DNA of 64,000 nucleotides from an uncultured bacterium (GTDB lineage Bacteria; Eisenbacteria; RBG-16-71-46; CAIMUX01; WJJG01): NCBI GenBank assembly GCA_964573295.1, contig CAZNJE010000002.1, positions 31,351 through 95,350 of the forward strand, read 5' to 3'. The position numbers and the translations under genes were made by a program. Under the pieces are notes generated by a model. That model saw nothing but the letters and a program-made list of their open reading frames with translations, searched no databases and had not been told where the DNA came from. Positions 23,039-50,690 of this stretch are shown here, piece by piece (positions within the stretch are counted from its first letter, which is position 1; each line of letters starts with the position of its first letter).

Positions 23039-25117
23039 ATGAAGTGGTGGCGGACGCCCGTTTCCGATAGACCCGTCCTGCCCCTGGCATTCTGGGGCTT
23101 CGCAATCCTGGCCTTCACGATCCTGGCCCCGACCTGGCTCACGGGCTGCACGGGCTCATCCGCTCACCGTCCCGCGCAGGCGGATGCCGGCCCCGCGCCC
23201 GACGGGGATTCATCGAGGACCGAGGATCCGAGCACAACCGATGCGTACGGCCGGACCCTCGGATCCGGCGACCTCGACCCGTCCGGCCGGAACGATGGAG
23301 TCGCCAGGATCGATGCCGCCGGAAGCGACTCTTCACAAACCGATGCCGACTGGCTCATCGACAGTCTCGCCGTACCGGTCGACTCCCTCAATCTTCCGGG
23401 CGCGTTCCAGGTCGATTTGCCGGACATCTCCGACAGCCTGGCCGCCGCTACCGAAGCGCAGCTTCCCTCGGTGGACGAGATCTTCGACTACCCGATCGAG
23501 TTCAACCGCCGCGTGCTGGCGTGGATCGACTTCTATCTGGGTCGCGGTCGGCGCAGCTTCGACCACAGTTTGGAAAGGTCCGGCCGTTACTTGGCGATGG
23601 CGCGCAGGATCTTTGCCGAGGAAGGCGTTCCGCAAGACCTGGCTTCCCTGGCGCACGTGGAGAGCGGATTCCGGCACAACGCGCAGTCACCGGCGCGCGC
23701 CTTGGGGCTCTGGCAGTTCATGCGCGGCACGGCCCGCCGCTACGGACTGCGGTGCGATGCCTATGTCGACGAGCGGCTCGATCCGGAGAAGTCGACCCGG
23801 GCCTGCGCCCAGCATCTCCGCGACCTCTACGCCGAGTACGGCGACTGGTACTTGTCCCTGGCCGCCTACAATGCCGGTGCCGGCAAGGTGAACCGGGCCA
23901 TCCGCAAGACGCGCGAGCGCAACTTCTGGGACATCGCGCGCACCCGCTACCTGGTCAACGAAACACGCAACTTCGTCCCGGCGATCCTGGCGGCAACGAT
24001 CCTGGCCAAGAGCCCAGGTGCCTATGGTTTCAAGGAAACGACCGAGCCACCGCTCGAGTACGACACGATCACGGTCGACACCCCGACCGATCTGCGCGTG
24101 CTCTCGGCCGCCGCGGGCATCCCGCTCGCCGAGCTGGTTGATCTCAACCCCGCGCTGTTGCTGATGCAAACCCCTCGCGGGGAACCCTATACCGTTCACG
24201 TGCCCGCAGGCTTCGGTGAGGCGGTGGCAGCCGCCCTCGGCGAGATTCCGCCCGAGAAACGGCTCGTGCATCACCGGCACGTGGTTCGCAGTGGACAGAC
24301 ATTGGGAGGGCTGGCCCACCGCTATGGCACCACGGTTGGCGCCATTCAGGACGCCAACGGGATGGGCCGCAGAACGACAATCTACGCCGGCGATACGCTG
24401 TTGATCCCCAGTCGTCACGGAGGTCTCGGCGATCTCGCCCTGGCGGCCGGCCCGGACGGCACGATCAAGCATACCGTGCGACGGGGAGAGTGTCTGTCGA
24501 ATATCGCCGCGCACTACCGGGTCAAAGTCGGCGCGATCAGCTCCGCCAACGGACTGGCCGACCCCCGTCGCATCTACCCGGGCCAAGTGCTCGCGATCCC
24601 TTTGCCTCCCGACCGGCTCCTGACCCAGCTCGCCGAACGCGATCCGGTGGGGCTGGGCTCGGGCGGCGCTCTGCCGGTACGCGCTCAGAACAACTCCGAC
24701 TCGCTGGGCCGGGTGGCCAGCACGGCCCACATCGTGGAGCAAGCCCGCGAGGCCATCAAGCTCGAGGAAGCCCGTGCCGCCGAGGAAAACCGCCGGCTAC
24801 CGAGCCCCACACTGCACACGGTGCGGCGCGGTGACACCCTCTCGGAGATCGCCACGCGCTACGACGTGCGCGTATCCGAGTTGCGTCGCTGGAACGGGTT
24901 GGGGCGCTCGAGCTTGATCTATCCCGGCCAGGATCTGCGAGTCGCCCCGCCCGACGGGAACCCCTCCGGCGAATCGCGGGTGCACGTAGTACAGCGCGGT
25001 GAGTCGCTGTGGACGATTGCTCAGCGCTACGGGGTGCGGGTCTCCGATCTCACCCAGTGGAACGACATCAGCCGGGGGGGGATCATCCGGCCTGGCCAGA
25101 AGCTCCTGCTATACTAG
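23039..25117 (+). CDS. mltD: Membrane-bound lytic murein transglycosylase D-like protein (SLT domain plus four LysM domains)
   Basis: Lipobox LTGC. SLT core (ESGF..NAQSPARALGLWQFM...YNAGAGKV). Four C-terminal LysM repeats (HTVRRGDTLSEIA...RWNGL). Confidence 0.85.
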   Translation: MKWWRTPVSDRPVLPLAFWGFAILAFTILAPTWLTGCTGSSAHRPAQADAGPAPDGDSSRTEDPSTTDAYGRTLGSGDLDPSGRNDGVARIDAAGSDSSQTDADWLIDSLAVPVDSLNLPGAFQVDLPDISDSLAAATEAQLPSVDEIFDYPIEFNRRVLAWIDFYLGRGRRSFDHSLERSGRYLAMARRIFAEEGVPQDLASLAHVESGFRHNAQSPARALGLWQFMRGTARRYGLRCDAYVDERLDPEKSTRACAQHLRDLYAEYGDWYLSLAAYNAGAGKVNRAIRKTRERNFWDIARTRYLVNETRNFVPAILAATILAKSPGAYGFKETTEPPLEYDTITVDTPTDLRVLSAAAGIPLAELVDLNPALLLMQTPRGEPYTVHVPAGFGEAVAAALGEIPPEKRLVHHRHVVRSGQTLGGLAHRYGTTVGAIQDANGMGRRTTIYAGDTLLIPSRHGGLGDLALAAGPDGTIKHTVRRGECLSNIAAHYRVKVGAISSANGLADPRRIYPGQVLAIPLPPDRLLTQLAERDPVGLGSGGALPVRAQNNSDSLGRVASTAHIVEQAREAIKLEEARAAEENRRLPSPTLHTVRRGDTLSEIATRYDVRVSELRRWNGLGRSSLIYPGQDLRVAPPDGNPSGESRVHVVQRGESLWTIAQRYGVRVSDLTQWNDISRGGIIRPGQKLLLY

Positions 25118-25353
25118 CCTCGCCTGGTTCCTCGACTGGCTCGGCTGGATTCGCAGAGTAGCCCGGTCCGGCTCGCAGGACCGGCCGGCTGGGATCCGGC
25201 GCGCTCGTACCCTATCGGCGCCCACACTCGACTCCGCGAAGCGTCCGCGGCAGGACCGTGATTCTGTGCCGCTGCCTAGCCCCATGCGCAATGCAAACAG
25301 GCCAAGTGAAGTGGATCGAACTCGCTTTGCCTGGCACGCCGAGGGGGGATCCC

Positions 25354-26802
25354 ATGCACAAGTTTCCGTTCGTTGGGCGGTCGTTCCTGTTCGTTGGCCA
25401 GCCACCCTCGTTCGTTAGGCAGTCGCTCCCCTTTGCTGGACGGCCGCTCCCCTTTGCTGGACAGTCGCTCCCCTTTGCTGGACAGTCGCTCCTGTTCGCC
25501 ACGTTCAGGCTCCTCCTGGCCGGGTTCTCGCTCTGTGCTCTTCTTCCCTCCTCGGCCTTGGCGGAGCACTGGGTGGTCGATCCATCCGGCGGCGGTGACT
25601 TCACCCACATTCAACCCGCCATCGAAGCGGCAACGCCCGGGGACGAGATCGAGGTTCTGGCAGGCACGTATGCGGAGGAACTCGATTACCTGGGCAAGGA
25701 TTTGCGCGTCTTCGCCAGCCAAGGTCCAGATGTCACCGTACTCACCCCTCCCGTCCCGACCACTCGCTCGACCCATCTGGTCACGTTCGCATCGGGTGAG
25801 GGCTCGGCAGCCAGTCTCGAAGGCTTCACGCTCAGCGCTTCCTCGGGGCCTCTCGTCGCGAGCCTGGGCGGTACGGGCGGCGGGGCGATCGGCTGCTACG
25901 GTAGCGAGCCGCAGATCCTCGGCTGCGTCTTCCTGCAGAACGAAGCGGATTACGGCGGGGGCATTCTGCTGATCGACGCCAACCCAACCATCTCGGGATG
26001 CACGTTCCTCGAGAATCTCGCGCATATCAGCGGTTCGGCGATCGCGGGGCCCAATTCGGCGCCGAGCATTCTCGAATGCCGTTTCGAGGACAATGAGGCC
26101 GTGACCGGTTCGGGAACGGTGCAGCTAGCCCTTCCCTGCGACATCGTGGCCTGCGAGTTCATCAACAACCGCGCGCACAGCGGCGGCGCGATCAGCTGTC
26201 CGTACGATACCGCCAACCTCCTCATCAAAGGGTGCACCTTCGAATCGAACCAGTCGACCGTCACCCATGGCGGCGCCATCCGCATTCACGAGGCCAGCCC
26301 AACGATCGAGTCCTGCACCTTCGTCGACAACCGGGCGGCTCTCGACGGCGGCGCGATCTTCACAGTCGATGGCGGTTCGGCCGAGCTGCGCCACTGCACC
26401 TTCTACTTCAACCTTGCCCAGCGCAGCGGAGGCCACCTGGCGGTGCTCAACGGGGCCACCCCCCTGATCGAGAACTGCATTCTCTCCGAGGCCCTGGGCG
26501 GCTACGGCGTCTTCGTCGACAGCGCCCTGCCGGCGTTCGTGTGCAACGCGTTCTGGAACAATCACCCCCTGAACTTCCTGAACTTCGAGGATCCCTCAGG
26601 CACCGACGGCAACTTCACGGCCGATCCTCTGTTCTGTGATGTGTTCAGCTACGACTTCACAATCGATACAAACTCACCCTGCGCCGAAGAAAACAACCCG
26701 CTCTGCGGCCAGATCGGGCGCTTCGGCGTGGCGTGTGGCGGCGTCCGCTGCCATTGCATCAGCTGGGGACACTTGCGAACGCGGTTCGATCCGCGGCCCT
26801 AG
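25354..26802 (+). CDS. Secreted right-handed parallel beta-helix repeat protein with N-terminal heptapeptide repeat array
   Basis: ATG at 25354, 5 nt after GAGGGGGG. N-terminus F[VA]G[RQ]xLP x6 encoded by 21-bp tandem repeats, then a hydrophobic signal/anchor. Many PbH1-like repeats (GGAI.., C.F..N, SGG) follow. Confidence 0.7.
   Translation: MHKFPFVGRSFLFVGQPPSFVRQSLPFAGRPLPFAGQSLPFAGQSLLFATFRLLLAGFSLCALLPSSALAEHWVVDPSGGGDFTHIQPAIEAATPGDEIEVLAGTYAEELDYLGKDLRVFASQGPDVTVLTPPVPTTRSTHLVTFASGEGSAASLEGFTLSASSGPLVASLGGTGGGAIGCYGSEPQILGCVFLQNEADYGGGILLIDANPTISGCTFLENLAHISGSAIAGPNSAPSILECRFEDNEAVTGSGTVQLALPCDIVACEFINNRAHSGGAISCPYDTANLLIKGCTFESNQSTVTHGGAIRIHEASPTIESCTFVDNRAALDGGAIFTVDGGSAELRHCTFYFNLAQRSGGHLAVLNGATPLIENCILSEALGGYGVFVDSALPAFVCNAFWNNHPLNFLNFEDPSGTDGNFTADPLFCDVFSYDFTIDTNSPCAEENNPLCGQIGRFGVACGGVRCHCISWGHLRTRFDPRP
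25365..25500 (+). repeat. 21-bp tandem repeat x6 (in frame, N-terminus of the beta-helix protein)
   Basis: gttcgttgggcggtcgttcct / gttcgttggccagccaccctc / gttcgttaggcagtcgctccc / ctttgctggacggccgctccc / ctttgctggacagtcgctccc x2, seen directly in the sequence. Confidence 0.9.
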
Positions 26803-27075
26803 CCCAAACGCGGCCCTAGCCCAGACGCGGCTCGAGCCCAGACGCGGCTCGAGCCTGAACGCAGCTTCGGCACCAACGGTCGAGGAGACGAAATGCACCC
26901 AGCCCTCCATACCTACCAATCGGCACACCAACACCCCGGTCGCCGCGCGCCGGCATGCATCTCGGTCCACAGAACCACGCCAACCACGCGAACCGGACCG
27001 ACCTCCCCAGCCGCAGCGACCGCGCGAAACGGTGCGACTACGCGAAACGGTGCGACTACGCGAAACGGTGCGCCC

Positions 27076-27786
27076 ATGCCGGCCGGGACGCCCTTGAGAG
27101 CCCGAGCGCTCCCAGGAATCAGGTCACTTCCGCGAACCACGTCGTTCCTCGGGACCTTGGTACCTCTGGTTCCCTTGGTTCCCTTGGTTCCTTTGGCTCC
27201 TTTGGCACTCTTGACTGTTCTCACTCTCACGGCCCTCTGGACGCCGAACGCCACGGCTCAGGTCGAGGCCGCCGACCCGGTCACCGAAAGCGCATCCGCC
27301 CAGGTCGAGGCCGCCGACCCGGTCACCGAAAGCGCATCCGAAGCCGGAGGTGTCAGCAGCACCGCGGCCGATTCTCTGCTCATCCAGGTTCGTAAAGTGA
27401 TTGAGCCCAGCGACGGCACGACAGTGCTCCATTTCCACGCCACCGAGCGTTGCGCCGACTGCATCCTGATCGAGACCTACGCCCGAGACGCGATCGAAGA
27501 GCAGTTCGTCTCAGAGCTCGAGGATGGTCAGCTAACATTCCGGCTGATCAACATCGACGAGCCACGAAACGCTCCTTTGCGCGAGTACTACGACATCGAC
27601 GACACCATGGTCGTGCTGACCCGCTGGCGAGACGGCCAGCAGCTCGAGTGGATGGCCCTTTGGGAGGTCTGGGACTATGTCGAGGATCCTCTCTCGATGG
27701 GCTTGTATGTCACCGACGAAGTATTCAGCTATGTCGAGAAGGACGAGCGCGAGCGGGAGGAAGCCGCCGTTTCGGGTAATGACTAG
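27076..27786 (+). CDS. Secreted hypothetical protein (repeat-containing N-terminus)
   Basis: ATG at 27076. Signal peptide with (LVP)x3 from a 9-bp repeat, AQVEAADPVTESAS x2 from a 42-bp repeat, then a ~150-aa acidic domain (HFHATERCADCILIE...). No family recognised. Confidence 0.5.
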   Translation: MPAGTPLRARALPGIRSLPRTTSFLGTLVPLVPLVPLVPLAPLALLTVLTLTALWTPNATAQVEAADPVTESASAQVEAADPVTESASEAGGVSSTAADSLLIQVRKVIEPSDGTTVLHFHATERCADCILIETYARDAIEEQFVSELEDGQLTFRLINIDEPRNAPLREYYDIDDTMVVLTRWRDGQQLEWMALWEVWDYVEDPLSMGLYVTDEVFSYVEKDEREREEAAVSGND

Positions 27787-28608: not shown

Positions 28609-29796
28609 ATCAACGAGTTATCATTGGATTCCGGAATCAAGGCCTAAGTCCTTGCAAGACAAAGAGTTTCGCTGTTTGCCCTTGTCAAATTTGGAGTTCG
28701 CTAAAGTATGTCGTCGTCCAGAAGCGCGACCTCAGGCTGGACAGGGCTGAACCGTGCCGGCCAGCGGCTGACCCATGCCAGCCCGCAGATAACCCGTGCC
28801 AGCCCGCAGATAACCCGTGCCAGCCCGCAGATGGCCGCTTAGCGCCAGCCCCTTTCCCGAAATGGGATGGTGGGCGGGAGCACTCGATCCACGACAGGAG
28901 GCCGCGGAGAATATCAACGCACCCTGGGCTTGTCTCACACGAATCTCAGACGAATCATCGAATTCGGTCTTGGCTTGGCGATTTTGCCAAATTACAATCT
29001 TCCCAATCTTCTTGTTGTTTCCGATCACGCCGTCGAGGAAGCTCCTCATGGATTCCGTACATAGCGCACAGCTCGAGGCACGCGCCCAGACTCTGAAGGC
29101 GATGGCTCGCCCCTTGTGGCCTTGCTCTACGCGGGAGCGGCCGTCAGCGTCCTCGCCATCATTCTCACCGCACGGATCCTGGGCCCGGAGTTCGCCGTCG
29201 AAATCCCATCCGCCCCGGGCGGTGAAGCGCACAGATAGAGAAGGCCGGAGCGATCCCGCCTCCTCCGACAACTCCACCCGGAGCAAGAGCACGAGTCGAT
29301 GGAGTATCTCTTCACAGAGTTGACCAATGCAGTCCAGGGCTCACTGGCCACCGCGTTCTTGGCCGCGCAGGTGGCCGCGCAGGTAGCCGCGCAGGTGGCC
29401 GCGCAGGTGGCCGCGCAGATGGCCGCGTTCACCTCGGGCGTTCTCAGCGTCCTCCTCAGCCCCTGCCGCCTTGCCAGCATCCCGGTCATCGCAGCCCATG
29501 ACAACCGGCTCTATGGCGGAGCCCTGCTGTTGCTCTGCGGTGTGGGGCACCGCGCGGTGATCGTCGCCGCCGGGATCTCGGCCGGCTGGGTGCACCGCGA
29601 CATGAACTGGAACGAGGCCTCCCGAGGCGGCCTCTGGTTGCGCTGCGCGAGGTTCGCTGTCGGGCTCATGGGGACTGGTGCCCACTCTCGGGCCGGATGG
29701 GCTGGTGCCCAGCAATGGACCCGAAGACAAGAGTTCTGAGAACCTGGTTCACACTGCTCGATCGCATGGTCGGGTTGGAAGGAGAACAAGTTCACC

Positions 29797-31415: not shown

Positions 31416-31455
31416 CGCTGGCGCGGTTGCGGGGCACAATGAGATGCGCTGACGT

Positions 31456-31574
31456 CGCACGATCGGATGCCCCACGATCGGATGCCCCACGATCGGGTGC
31501 CCCACGATCGGATGCCGCACCATCGGATGCCGCACGATCCGACGTCGTATGATCGGTCGTAGCACGATCGGCAC
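31456..31574. repeat. 15-bp tandem repeat x8 (c[ac]cacgatcggatgc) in the intergenic region upstream of the cydA-like operon
   Basis: Read directly from the sequence. Copies degenerate toward the 3' end. Confidence 0.9.
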
Positions 31575-31625
31575 ATCTTCCTACTCATAAGCTACTTAAC
31601 TAGATAGTACCTGGACAAAGTCTCA

Positions 31626-36108: not shown

Positions 36109-37158
36109 ATGGCAGCTCGCGAGGTGGACGTGCAAGCCGGGCAACACCGGCTCCGACTGGACCGATTCCTCCGCGAGGCCTGCCCGGAGCTCAGCCACAA
36201 GGACATCGAGCGGCTGCTACGGACCGGGGCGGTCGAGATCTTCTCGGGATCCTCATCCGGAGTTTCGGAGCAGGGGCACGAGGAGCGGGGCCGAGTCGGT
36301 AACCACCGAACCTATGTGAAGCGGGGTGATCGGGTGCGCATCCGCGACCACCCGCAGGACGCAAAGACCGGTTCCGAACAGCCGGCGGCCCCCCCACGCA
36401 TCCTCGAGCGCTCAGCGCACCTTCTCGTCGTCGGCAAGCCACCCGGCATGCCGACCGTGCCGGTAGCCAGCGAGACGAAGGCCGATGGAAAGAAGGCCGA
36501 CAGGGCGAAGGCCGACAGGGCGAAGGCCGACAGGGCGAAGGCCGGCGCTCGGACGAGTCTCCTCGAGTGGGTTTCCAACGAACTGGCTGGTGAGGAGCCT
36601 CGACTTCATCCGGGCGTCCTCCATCGTCTGGATCAGGCCACCTCGGGGATCCTGCTCTTCTCGCTCAGCCCTACCGGACACCGCGTGGTGACGAGGCTTC
36701 TTCGCCAGCGAACGCTCGAGAAGCGATACCTGGGTGTGATCCGCGGCCAGCTATCACCAGCAACCGGAAGCATAGAACTGCCGCTGATGCGGGATGCATC
36801 GGGGCGGATGCGCGCCGCTGCCGCCGGCGCCCCCAGCCGGACCGGCTACCGCACGATCGAGTCGGGGAATGGGTGGAGCCTCCTCGAACTGGATCTCCAC
36901 ACCGGCCGCTTCCATCAGCTCCGGGCTCATCTGGCCGCGCTCCGCCATCCCCTCCTGGGGGATGACCGCTACGGCAGTCCCACACCCGAACTCACGCCGC
37001 CGCGCTTGTGGCTCCATGCCGCCCGGTTAGCGTTCCCACCCGAAGAGGCAAGGCGGCTTGGAGTACCTGCAACCCTGGTGTGCCCTCTCTGGCCGGATCT
37101 CGAGGCTCACCTTTCCACGTGCCTCCGTACCCACCCACGCGGCCGGGCCGGCAGCTGA
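36109..37158 (+). CDS. RluA-family 23S rRNA/tRNA pseudouridine synthase (S4 domain N-terminus)
   Basis: HRLDQATSGILLF catalytic motif, ...RFHQLRAHL. In-frame (KADRA)x3 insertion from a 15-bp repeat. Confidence 0.85.
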   Translation: MAAREVDVQAGQHRLRLDRFLREACPELSHKDIERLLRTGAVEIFSGSSSGVSEQGHEERGRVGNHRTYVKRGDRVRIRDHPQDAKTGSEQPAAPPRILERSAHLLVVGKPPGMPTVPVASETKADGKKADRAKADRAKADRAKAGARTSLLEWVSNELAGEEPRLHPGVLHRLDQATSGILLFSLSPTGHRVVTRLLRQRTLEKRYLGVIRGQLSPATGSIELPLMRDASGRMRAAAAGAPSRTGYRTIESGNGWSLLELDLHTGRFHQLRAHLAALRHPLLGDDRYGSPTPELTPPRLWLHAARLAFPPEEARRLGVPATLVCPLWPDLEAHLSTCLRTHPRGRAGS

Positions 37159-37219
37159 TCAGATCCCGGCCCGCGTACCCACCCGCGCGGCCGGGCCGGC
37201 AGCTGATCAGGTCCCGGCC
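37126..37219. terminator. Duplicated ~48-bp element with GGCCGGG...CCCGGCC stem-loop between convergent rluA-like and TDT transporter genes
   Basis: Two direct copies (37126-37171 and 37174-37219), each containing a 7-bp inverted repeat flanking a 17-nt loop. Positioned at the 3' ends of both convergent genes. Confidence 0.45.
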
Positions 37220-38525: not shown

Positions 38526-39458
38526 TTGGATCAGCAATCCAGAGCCTATCTGCACGGACTGGGCGCCGTGCTGGCGTGGTCGACCGTGGCATCGGCCTTC
38601 AAGCTGACGCTGCGGGAGCTGACGCCGGTGGCCATGCTCTTCTACGCGTCCCTGACCTCCCTGCTCATCCTGCTGGCCATCTTGACCTGGCAGGGCCGTC
38701 TGGGGGTCTTGAGGCAGATCCGGGGTCGCGAGTGGCTCGCCTATGCCGGGCTCGGGTTCCTCAACCCGTTTCTCTACTACACGATCCTCTTCCGCGCCTA
38801 CCAGCTCCTGCCCGGCCAGGAGGCTCAGGCTCTCAATTACACCTGGGCCATCACGCTGGCGCTCTTGTCGATTCCGATTCTGAAGCAGCGTATCCGGCCC
38901 GCCAGCCTCGTGGCGCTCGTGATCAGCTTTGCGGGGGTCTGGGTCATCTCCACACGGGGGGACGTGTTCTCGACGCACTTCGCCGAGCCGGTGGGCGTGC
39001 TGCTGGCGGTGGGCAGTTCGGTCGTTTGGGCGCTCTTCTGGATCGGCAACGTGCGCGATCCTCGGGACGAGATCGTCAAGCTGGCCCTGTGTTTCGTCTT
39101 CGGTACCGCCTTCGTGGGCCTCTACGCCCTGGCAACCGGGGATCCCTTGGCGGTGCGGTGGCCGGGGGTCGCCGGGGCAATCTACGCCGGCCTCTTCGAG
39201 ATGGGTCTCACGTTCGTCCTGTGGCTCACGGCCCTGCGGCTCTCACGCACGACCGCGCAGGTAGGCAACCTCATCTTCCTGTCGCCCTTCATCTCACTGG
39301 TGCTGCTTCACTTCGTGGTCGGTGAGGAGATCTTCCGCTCCTCGATCGTGGGGCTGGTACTCATCCTCGCCGGCATCGCCCTGCAGCGGCGCACCGACCG
39401 GATCACTCGGCAAACCGCGCCAGTGAGCCAACCCGCCGCCGGCAGCTGTGATCCGTGA
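38526..39458 (+). CDS. EamA/DMT-family transporter
   Basis: Two EamA-like 5-TM halves. TTG start preceded by GGGGAGGAGGG. Confidence 0.8.
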   Translation: MDQQSRAYLHGLGAVLAWSTVASAFKLTLRELTPVAMLFYASLTSLLILLAILTWQGRLGVLRQIRGREWLAYAGLGFLNPFLYYTILFRAYQLLPGQEAQALNYTWAITLALLSIPILKQRIRPASLVALVISFAGVWVISTRGDVFSTHFAEPVGVLLAVGSSVVWALFWIGNVRDPRDEIVKLALCFVFGTAFVGLYALATGDPLAVRWPGVAGAIYAGLFEMGLTFVLWLTALRLSRTTAQVGNLIFLSPFISLVLLHFVVGEEIFRSSIVGLVLILAGIALQRRTDRITRQTAPVSQPAAGSCDP

Positions 39459-39536
39459 GCCCACCCGCCCGGCCGGCAGCAGTGAACCGTGAGCCACCCG
39501 CCCGGCCGGCGGCCGCGAGACCGCAAGCTGGGCGCG

Positions 39537-48678: not shown

Positions 48679-48750
48679 CCCTCGCTGGTCGGACCGGGTG
48701 CCCCCTCGCTGGTCGGACCGGGCACCCCCCCGCTGGTCCGACCGGGCCGA
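48679..48750. repeat. 24-bp tandem repeat x3 between gltX and glnS
   Basis: ctcgctggtcggaccgggtgcccc-like units at 48681, 48705 and 48729. Confidence 0.85.
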
Positions 48751-50250: not shown

Positions 50251-50690
50251 CTCAGTTGATGGTGATGGTGTCGGGGGTGGCGGTACCGGCGGTGGTGTCG
50301 GCGGTGGCGGTGGTGGCGGTGGTGGCGGTGCCGGCGGTGGTGTCGGCGGTGTGGACGATGCCATGGAAGACCTCATGATGGTGTCCCACGTGGAACGACC
50401 TGCCTCGCAATTGCCTACGAAAAGTCCCTGCAAGAGCCCCTGCAAGAGCCCCTGCAAGAGCCCCTACGAAGAGCCCCTGCGAAAAGAGCTGATACCGCAT
50501 GCGGGCCCGATGTGGGCCCGCATGTGAAGAGAGAATGTTCGGGGTTTCAAGGGCCGGAGTCAAGCCAAGCCTGGAACGGCTCGACTCACGCGGCCCACCG
50601 TCCGGTCGATAGGGACCGTCGTAGAACACAAAGAGGTCGCCGGCGTCACCCTCAGGCAACCGCCGTCCGAGACCAACCGCCCAACGTCCT

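Follow-up and report, generated by a model that had tools for sequence, protein, structure and literature searches.

Why does the gene of a predicted exported protein carry a tandem array between its start codon and its signal sequence? The question is raised by a gene for a right-handed beta-helix protein in a stretch of 64,000 nucleotides (64 kb; hereafter the window) from an uncultured bacterium of the Eisenbacteria, in which six 21-bp units, 126 bp in all, stand just past the start codon and ahead of a hydrophobic segment. With a probability that we put at about 0.7, the array is an in-frame coding minisatellite, or variable number tandem repeat (VNTR), in the n-region of a predicted Sec leader, and its copy number is a tolerated, nearly neutral length polymorphism. 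All the sequences that we compare are short-read metagenome assemblies.

Six in-frame units ahead of a hydrophobic segment

An earlier note on this DNA had described six in-frame 21-bp repeats between an ATG at 25354 and a hydrophobic segment, and both direct reading and repeat searches bear out this description (Table 1). The peptide consensus proposed there, F[VA]G[RQ]xLP, is exact for units 4 and 5; the other four units differ from it at one to three positions. Identity among the units ranges from 64 to 100%. Tandem Repeats Finder (TRF) reports the three youngest units with their flanks (25420-25492, period 21, 3.5 copies, 92% matches, score 132), and a repeat search of the window returns a family, D3, of five overlapping 42-nt copies that are in register at a spacing of 21. 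When up to three mismatches are allowed, the unit pattern has 3 occurrences in the window, where shuffles give an expectation of 0.01, and no occurrence is found elsewhere in the 64 kb outside the array. Past the array, the coding sequence reads LLLAGFSLCALL, PSSALA, and then EHWVVD / EHWVVDPSGGGDF.

Table 1. Features of the beta-helix gene and its leader, in window coordinates.
Feature	Position	Strand	Remarks
Shine-Dalgarno-like GAGGGGGG	25341..25348	+	5 nt ahead of the ATG; read directly from the sequence
Start codon and MHKFP (ATG CAC AAG TTT CCG)	25354..25368	+	15 nt identical in L004, L006 and L007
Variable array, six in-frame 21-bp units	25369..25494	+	FVGRSFL, FVGQPPS, FVRQSLP, FAGRPLP, FAGQSLP, FAGQSLL
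Degenerate seventh unit / junction FATFRLL	25495..25515	+	allele alignment
Arg52 codon AGG, directly ahead of the hydrophobic core	25507-25509	+	allele alignment
h-region LLLAGFSLCALL, 12 residues	25510..25545	+	Kyte-Doolittle; aligned with the h-regions of 18 orthologues
c-region PSSALA, predicted signal peptidase I site after Ala70 (ALA↓EH)	25546..25563	+	sequence features
Mature right-handed beta-helix / POMP-repeat protein, to the end of the open reading frame (ORF), stop codon included	25564..26802	+	PF13229, PF02415, TIGR01376
17-bp tandem array, starting in the final codons, stop included, of the beta-helix gene	26792..26866	+	copy number variable

The array is translated

Two ways of reading this DNA had been offered, one in which translation begins at the ATG at 25354 and runs through the array, and one in which the array is a tandem operator and the true start lies downstream. 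The first holds. We enumerated all in-frame codons, and from 25354 to 25558 there is no other ATG, GTG or TTG; the first canonical start candidates downstream fall within or past the cleavage region of the leader, so that a protein begun there would lose its conserved signal peptide. The Shine-Dalgarno (SD) sequence GAGGGGGG(G) is kept in four relatives. Three of them (L004, L006 and L007), 95-97% identical, have GAGGGGGGGATCTC-ATG-CAC-AAG-TTT-CCG in common. The fourth (L002) is a syntenic orthologue with 83% protein and 81% DNA identity and the same gene order as the window (GAF, FUR, SLT/LysM, beta-helix), in which the upstream sequence is GAGGGGGGACCGCATG compared with GAGGGGGGATCCCATG in the window, and in which the SD and the ATG are kept. 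In L004, L006 and L007 an in-frame stop is found at -48 or -78, with no ATG, GTG or TTG between that stop and the ATG, which makes the ATG the sole possible start in these three sequences. The SD G-run (25343-25348 in the window) has a length of 6 in the window and of 7 in L004, L006 and L007, so the reading frame upstream of the ATG is not conserved between the window and these relatives. The stops of the relatives and the frame difference at the G-run lead us to reject the upstream starts present in the window (TTG 25327, GTG 25306, ATG 25291 and GTG 25258). Non-canonical CTG starts downstream (25387, 25492 and 25516) are rejected as well, since none has an SD-like sequence ahead of it. By this comparison of sequences, the assignment of ATG 25354 as the true start is secure, with the array translated as an extension of the n-region of the signal peptide.

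A non-coding role, as a tandem operator or another DNA site with translation beginning past the array, has nothing in its favour beyond the repetitive appearance of the DNA, and is almost certainly wrong. Besides the missing canonical start, the signal peptide that would be lost and the conserved SD-ATG-MHKFP segment, it is contradicted by the units themselves. All 20 of the 20 units over four alleles are in register in the DNA alignment, without a stop or a frameshift, and their sequence and number differ between strains, unlike those of a binding-site array.

The leader resembles a Sec signal peptide with a long n-region

At 70 residues, the window leader exceeds the usual length of a Sec signal peptide (about 18-30 residues), as do the leaders of 35, 63 and 84 residues in close relatives. 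Its three regions have the properties of a Sec leader. The positive residues are K3, R9, R22, R30 and R52, and there is no Asp or Glu in residues 1-70, as is typical of a Sec n-region. The Kyte-Doolittle mean over 11 residues reaches its maximum of 2.43 at residue 54, in the h-region, and is at most 1.46 in the repeat part; across alleles, the maxima are 1.2-1.6 for the repeat part compared with 2.2-2.8 for the core, so the repeat part is not hydrophobic enough to serve as the core. The length of the 12-residue LLLAGFSLCALL is within the range of Sec h-regions (roughly 7-15 residues), and the cleavage site P-S-S-A-L-A↓E-H has small residues at -3 and -1 and a Pro at -6. The four close alleles agree in both core and A-L-A↓E, and in L002 there is a similar core, with A-T-A↓E at the equivalent position. 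From these features we infer a cleavable Sec-type signal peptide, probably cut after Ala70. Since the array is predicted to be removed with the leader, it cannot alter or diversify the mature protein.

Other types of leader have been ruled out. There is no RR in residues 1-70 of any allele, which excludes a Tat signal peptide. The only Cys of the leader lies in F-S-L-C, with Leu at -1 and no lipobox [LVI][ASTVI][GAS]C, which excludes a lipoprotein signal peptide. ESPR (PF13018), the family of extended leaders, has no match in a Pfam scan at E<=0.01.

The product has profile matches above the curated cut-offs to PF13229 (58 bits, cut-off 25.9), PF02415 (41.3, cut-off 20.6) and TIGR01376 (30.3, cut-off 15), and the same Pfam scan returns Beta_helix, Chlam_PMP and DUF5123 only. 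Pfam and NCBIfam scans find neither a C-terminal beta-barrel translocator nor a TpsA-type secretion domain. Orthologue proteins are 424-447 aa long, and the best among the named relatives belongs to Candidatus Eisenbacteria, at 42% identity. The last Cys of the window protein, about 50 residues past the last beta-helix repeat, is about 25 residues from the C-terminus. A conserved tail, SWGx[LIV][KR]xx[FY]R (window 26770-26799), closes 19 of 19 orthologues soon after a conserved Cys-rich segment, and may be a sorting or anchoring tag of some kind. Longer homologues bear FlgD_ig (PF13860) domains.

Copy-number alleles and their order of descent

That a change in repeat number would alter the length or charge of the leader was also proposed earlier, and we find this variation among close relatives. 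In the 90%-identity cluster of the window protein there are four proteins, of 447, 475, 482 and 496 aa, and these lengths differ by exact multiples of 7. The corresponding alleles have 1 unit in L004 (contig CAZZIF010000423.1 of a metagenome-assembled genome), 5 in L007 (ENA ERZ10759765), 6 in the window and 8 in L006 (ENA ERZ10759785). In that order, the leaders have 35, 63, 70 and 84 residues with 2, 7, 5 and 10 Lys+Arg. The leader of L002, with no unit, has 23 residues and 1 Lys+Arg. Acidic residues number zero in each of the five leaders. A Logan assembly of SRR7048224 includes a contig corresponding to window positions 24369-27052 (L001), with six units exactly as in the window. Orthologues at 38-83% identity, 18 of 18, have leaders of about 20-35 aa and no repeats; in these, the hydrophobic core comes after a Met and a few residues, one of them a Lys or Arg. 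A metagenome scan with ATGCACAAGTTTCCGTTCGTTGG gave no match.

The mature part of the gene provides the order of descent. Its DNA identity is 94.6-94.8% between the window and the other three alleles, 97.1-97.3% between L004 and either L006 or L007, and 99.76% between L006 and L007. With L002 as the outgroup, 17 derived sites are joint to L004 and L006, compared with 3 joint to the window and L004. Identities and derived sites together give the tree (window,(L004,(L006,L007))). The window and L006 have orthologous units 1-3 (FVGRSFL/FVGRSLL, FVGQPPS/FIGQSPS and FVRQSLP/LVRQSRP), and the last unit and the junction are likewise common to both; the middle units differ. Already before the split, the common ancestor thus had an array, with three or four units at the least. 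Thereafter each lineage amplified the middle of the array on its own. In L004 the single unit is a derived contraction, its sequence matching a fusion of unit 1 (5' part) with the last unit (3' part); L007 has lost three units in register relative to L006, at 0.24% divergence. Over the orthologous units 1-3, 6 of 63 nt differ, 5 of the 6 non-synonymously (the mature part differs at about 5.4%). That these differences are mostly non-synonymous indicates that the repeat peptide sequence is weakly constrained.

Tandem arrays are frequent in the window

The array described in the earlier note is real; what the note overlooked are its surroundings, with 26 tandem arrays in the window, an array at the stop codon of the same gene and repeats in the leader of the next one. 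Counting arrays with a TRF score of at least 50, we find 26 distinct ones with periods of 11-48 nt, and they cover 2.8% of the bases. Shuffled windows have a mean of 0.9 arrays (third-order Markov) or 0.35 (triplet shuffle), and the observed number is thus 30-70 times the expectation. The density of 4.1 arrays per 10 kb is 10-20 times that in 50 kb of E. coli K-12 (0.2) or in 50 kb of S. meliloti pSymB (0.4), a replicon of similar G+C. Each array has its own unit, and every repeat family found in the window is local. A dispersed repeat or mobile element is rejected as the source of the 21-bp array, as the unit is confined to the array and the window has no dispersed family.

The arrays are depleted in gene cores. 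With a rough gene model, the midpoint is over 60 codons away from a gene end in 7 of the 26, compared with 17.7 +/- 2.4 under random placement (0 of 5000 trials were as low), and 12 of the 26 are intergenic though intergenic sequence makes up 9% of the window. Over 8 kb, the window and L006 differ by 11 indels of at least 3 nt. Several coincide with tandem arrays, and two correspond to whole numbers of units (42 = 2 x 21 and 68 = 4 x 17). For the 17-bp array at the end of the beta-helix gene (CCGCGGCCCTAG...), copy numbers are 1 in L002 and L004, 4.4 in the window and about 8 in L006 and L007. At that array, the 3' end of the beta-helix gene is duplicated into the spacer. The syntenic region of L002 (6.75 kb) has zero arrays with a score of at least 50, and the repeat richness therefore looks specific to the clade of the window. 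The surrounding arrays point to a genome-wide process, not to a device special to the beta-helix gene.

Origin of the array and alternative explanations

Head-to-tail units with a length that is a multiple of three, and whole-unit differences between strains that stay in register, are the two marks of a coding VNTR, and the 21-bp array has both. In the explanation that we favour, a 21-bp stretch just past the start codon would have been duplicated head to tail, and whole units would have been gained and lost since by replication slippage or unequal recombination. Because the unit has seven codons, each copy change would leave the beta-helix gene in frame, and the outcome would be the observed leaders of different length and charge with core, ALA↓E and mature protein unchanged. 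The lineage would form short tandem duplications at a high rate throughout its genome, and arrays would survive where extra sequence is tolerated, that is, in intergenic spacers, gene ends, leaders and linkers. The effect of the array on translation or export kinetics would be at most quantitative. Both the slippage mechanism and the near-neutrality we infer from the pattern of alleles and arrays.

Some observations weigh against this explanation. The residue ahead of the core is Arg (AGG) in the three multi-copy alleles and Met (ATG) in the single-copy L004, a single contrast hinting that the leader may have co-adapted to the array. A multi-unit array has been kept across about 5% nucleotide divergence, and the units retain a loose hydrophobic-x-G-R/Q-x-L-P pattern with no acidic residue, both of which could reflect some selection. 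As to the alleles themselves, the Logan contig that is identical to the window may stem from the same reads as the window, and some of the short-read assemblies have a coverage of about 5x, so that individual copy numbers could be off.

Could the array be an assembly artefact, with its units or their number made by the short-read assembly? The low coverage of L004, L006 and L007 (about 5x according to the contig names) would allow for it, and repeats do break assemblies at this locus, as the Logan contig ends at 27052 in a perfect 18-bp array. The 21-bp units are diverged, however, the 126-bp array fits within a read or read pair, and orthologous first units appear in assemblies from different studies. 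The L004 junction shares about 8-10 nt with either parent unit, which is probably too short for a k-mer shortcut. We find an artefact extremely unlikely. Control at the RNA level, in which the CUCCCC of most units would pair with the G-rich SD and copy number would set translation initiation, is also very unlikely. For the leaders of the window and L006, both the minimum-free-energy and the centroid fold do show this pairing of GAGGGGGG, but in stability the folds do not surpass shuffled sequences (z of +1.86, +0.31 and +1.15). The SD has a low predicted probability of being unpaired in all alleles, those with 0 and 1 copies included (0.00-0.17), and an equally low one in downstream-shuffled controls (0.11-0.15 +/- 0.1). 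We reject SD sequestration as unsupported, because fold energy and SD accessibility match those of shuffled controls.

The earlier note had also raised phase variation in export efficiency. In the usual on/off sense this is impossible, since with a period of 21, a multiple of three, copy changes never shift the frame and all alleles are in frame. The locus does resemble a contingency locus in having a 5' coding repeat tract that varies among close relatives (1, 5, 6 and 8 units among sequences that are 94.6-99.8% identical); it differs in its unit, which in such loci is not divisible by three or lies in a promoter spacer and here is 21 nt long and downstream of the start. For frequent, reversible switching inside one clonal population, the one hint is the contrast of 8 and 5 units at 0.24% divergence. 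What could vary by degrees is export, with copy number acting as a heritable rheostat for the beta-helix protein. By analogy with the extended signal peptides of autotransporters, a longer, charged n-region might alter the speed or route of export (signal recognition particle versus SecA/SecB) or the time during which the protein is tethered to the inner membrane. The difference between 8 and 5 units at 99.76% identity would agree with such a role, and so would the leader charge of +2 to +10 with no acidic residues, the Arg found ahead of the core in multi-copy alleles only, and a cargo, a beta-helix / POMP-repeat protein, of a type for which long leaders have been described (PMC2805444). The 18 orthologues and one close relative, however, do with ordinary leaders; the repeat peptide changes faster than the mature protein, and mainly non-synonymously; there is no ESPR match; and nearby non-coding spacers have variable arrays too, so that the variability needs no selective explanation. 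We consider a tuning device unlikely, and a quantitative effect on export, for which the evidence is the variability itself and the Arg/Met contrast, is speculation.

Comparison with known systems

The mechanism and the class of the element, an in-frame coding minisatellite, are already known. The case closest in position is that of the Neisseria opa (P.II) genes, which have CTCTT pentamer repeats in the part coding for the leader peptide, where a 5-nt copy change shifts the frame and turns the gene on or off (PMC3960869, PMC3899988). As in opa, a short tandem repeat is located past the start codon, before the signal peptide ends, in a surface or secreted protein gene, and copy number differs among close strains, in opa by slipped-strand mispairing, which we take to act on the 21-bp array as well. 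Unlike in opa, the unit has 21 nt, all alleles are in frame and only the length and charge of the leader vary; and in opa the repeats supply part of the hydrophobic core, while the 21-bp array lies in the n-region.

Autotransporters and two-partner secretion proteins offer another parallel in their long signal sequences, ESPR included (PMC2805444). Like these, the array leaders can exceed 50 residues; an N-terminal extension precedes a signal peptide of the usual n-h-c layout, and a beta-helical, passenger-like protein comes next. ESPR is, however, a conserved, non-repetitive family, and the array leader consists of tandem heptads that the ESPR model does not match; it is also missing from orthologues and variable in length among strains, and its protein lacks a beta-barrel translocator domain.

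In-frame coding minisatellites (VNTRs) have been described in bacterial and fungal surface proteins (PMC3899988). They also have units that are a multiple of three and give rise to strain length variants by gain or loss of whole units, and they too are concentrated in genes for secreted and surface proteins. Those VNTRs are found in the mature, exposed part, where they alter the displayed protein, while the 21-bp array lies wholly in a part that is predicted to be removed by signal peptidase. We found no description of a bacterial signal peptide with in-frame tandem repeats in the searchable literature, nor any literature that links Eisenbacteria with tandem repeats. A position wholly inside the predicted cleaved part of a bacterial Sec leader, with a natural series of 1 to 8 copies, is apparently undescribed.

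Arrays in neighbouring genes and spacers

The gene that follows the beta-helix gene (26893-27786) belongs to the ArsF family (NF040494) and contains arrays at 27023-27072, 27155-27213 and 27259-27340. Its protein has a 62-residue n-region insertion found only in the window, which includes a perfect 18-bp x 2.8 array. The hydrophobic segment has four LVP (9-bp) repeats in the window and two in L004, L006 and L007, and after these repeats L006 and L007 also lack a LAPLAL stretch. Past the hydrophobic segment, a 14-residue unit is present in two copies in the window and in three in the relatives. The Logan contig stops within the perfect 18-bp array (27023-27072), and the copy number in the window may be an under-estimate.

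Upstream, at 23087-23128, the leader of the SLT/LysM lipoprotein gene has 37 residues (MKWWRTPVSDRPVLPLAFWGFAILAFTILAPTWLTGC), compared with 27 in L002. Its core contains an imperfect 15-nt duplication (AFWGF/AILAF/TILA), of which the two copies, at 78% identity, could be due to chance.

Farther along the window, at 50266-50351 and 50414-50526 on the minus strand, a glutamyl-tRNA synthetase-like gene has a Pro-rich N-terminal extension (PPTPPPAPPPPPPPPPPTPPPVPPPP) encoded by 9-bp repeats, with two arrays, 12-bp x 4.5 and 11-bp, directly upstream of it. Another array, 24-bp x 2.9 (48679-48747, minus strand), occupies the leader region ahead of the GlnRS start (48569). Gene callers and homologues begin at MSDPTKNS, and the long ORF running over this array is an over-extension. 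Among GlnRS hits, those with a name, at about 70-73%, are spread over several phyla. A 506-bp segment (29136-29641) is present in the window and missing from L006, and a 12-bp x 5.7 array inside it (29360-29427) would encode AAQV repeats in a small ORF. An intergenic 15-bp x 8 array (CACGATCGGATGCCC) occupies window positions 31443-31577, and the equivalent spacer of L006 (6254-6313) has a different repetitive insertion of 60 nt (ATGAGCTACTTGTTC...). Two arrays, at 37121-37216 (48 bp x 2) and 39423-39510 (34 bp x 2.7), straddle gene 3' ends; the units of both contain CCCACCC..GGCCGGCAGC, and they may be duplicated terminator-like sequence.

Implications

The hypervariable minisatellites of this lineage could together act as contingency elements, with in-frame leader arrays as heritable, reversible rheostats for how fast envelope proteins are exported or how long they dwell in the membrane, and the mature products unchanged. 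We hold this to be quite improbable. The leader arrays in question sit in the beta-helix protein's n-region, in the n- and h-regions of its ArsF-like neighbour and perhaps in the h-region of the upstream SLT/LysM lipoprotein.

Even on the conservative reading alone, that of a nearly neutral in-frame VNTR, the locus illustrates how much change a Sec n-region may tolerate. Natural leaders of 35 to 84 residues, with a charge of +2 to +10, precede one unchanged core, cleavage site and cargo, and the four leaders form an allelic series that is ready for testing the effects of n-region length and charge on targeting and translocation. For annotation, arrays routinely extend leaders, gene ends and spacers in this lineage, so gene callers and signal-peptide predictors that are tuned to short leaders may mislabel its proteins. 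Minisatellites that are this dense and strain-variable in an uncultured bacterium raise questions about its repair and replication genes, and offer markers for strain typing.

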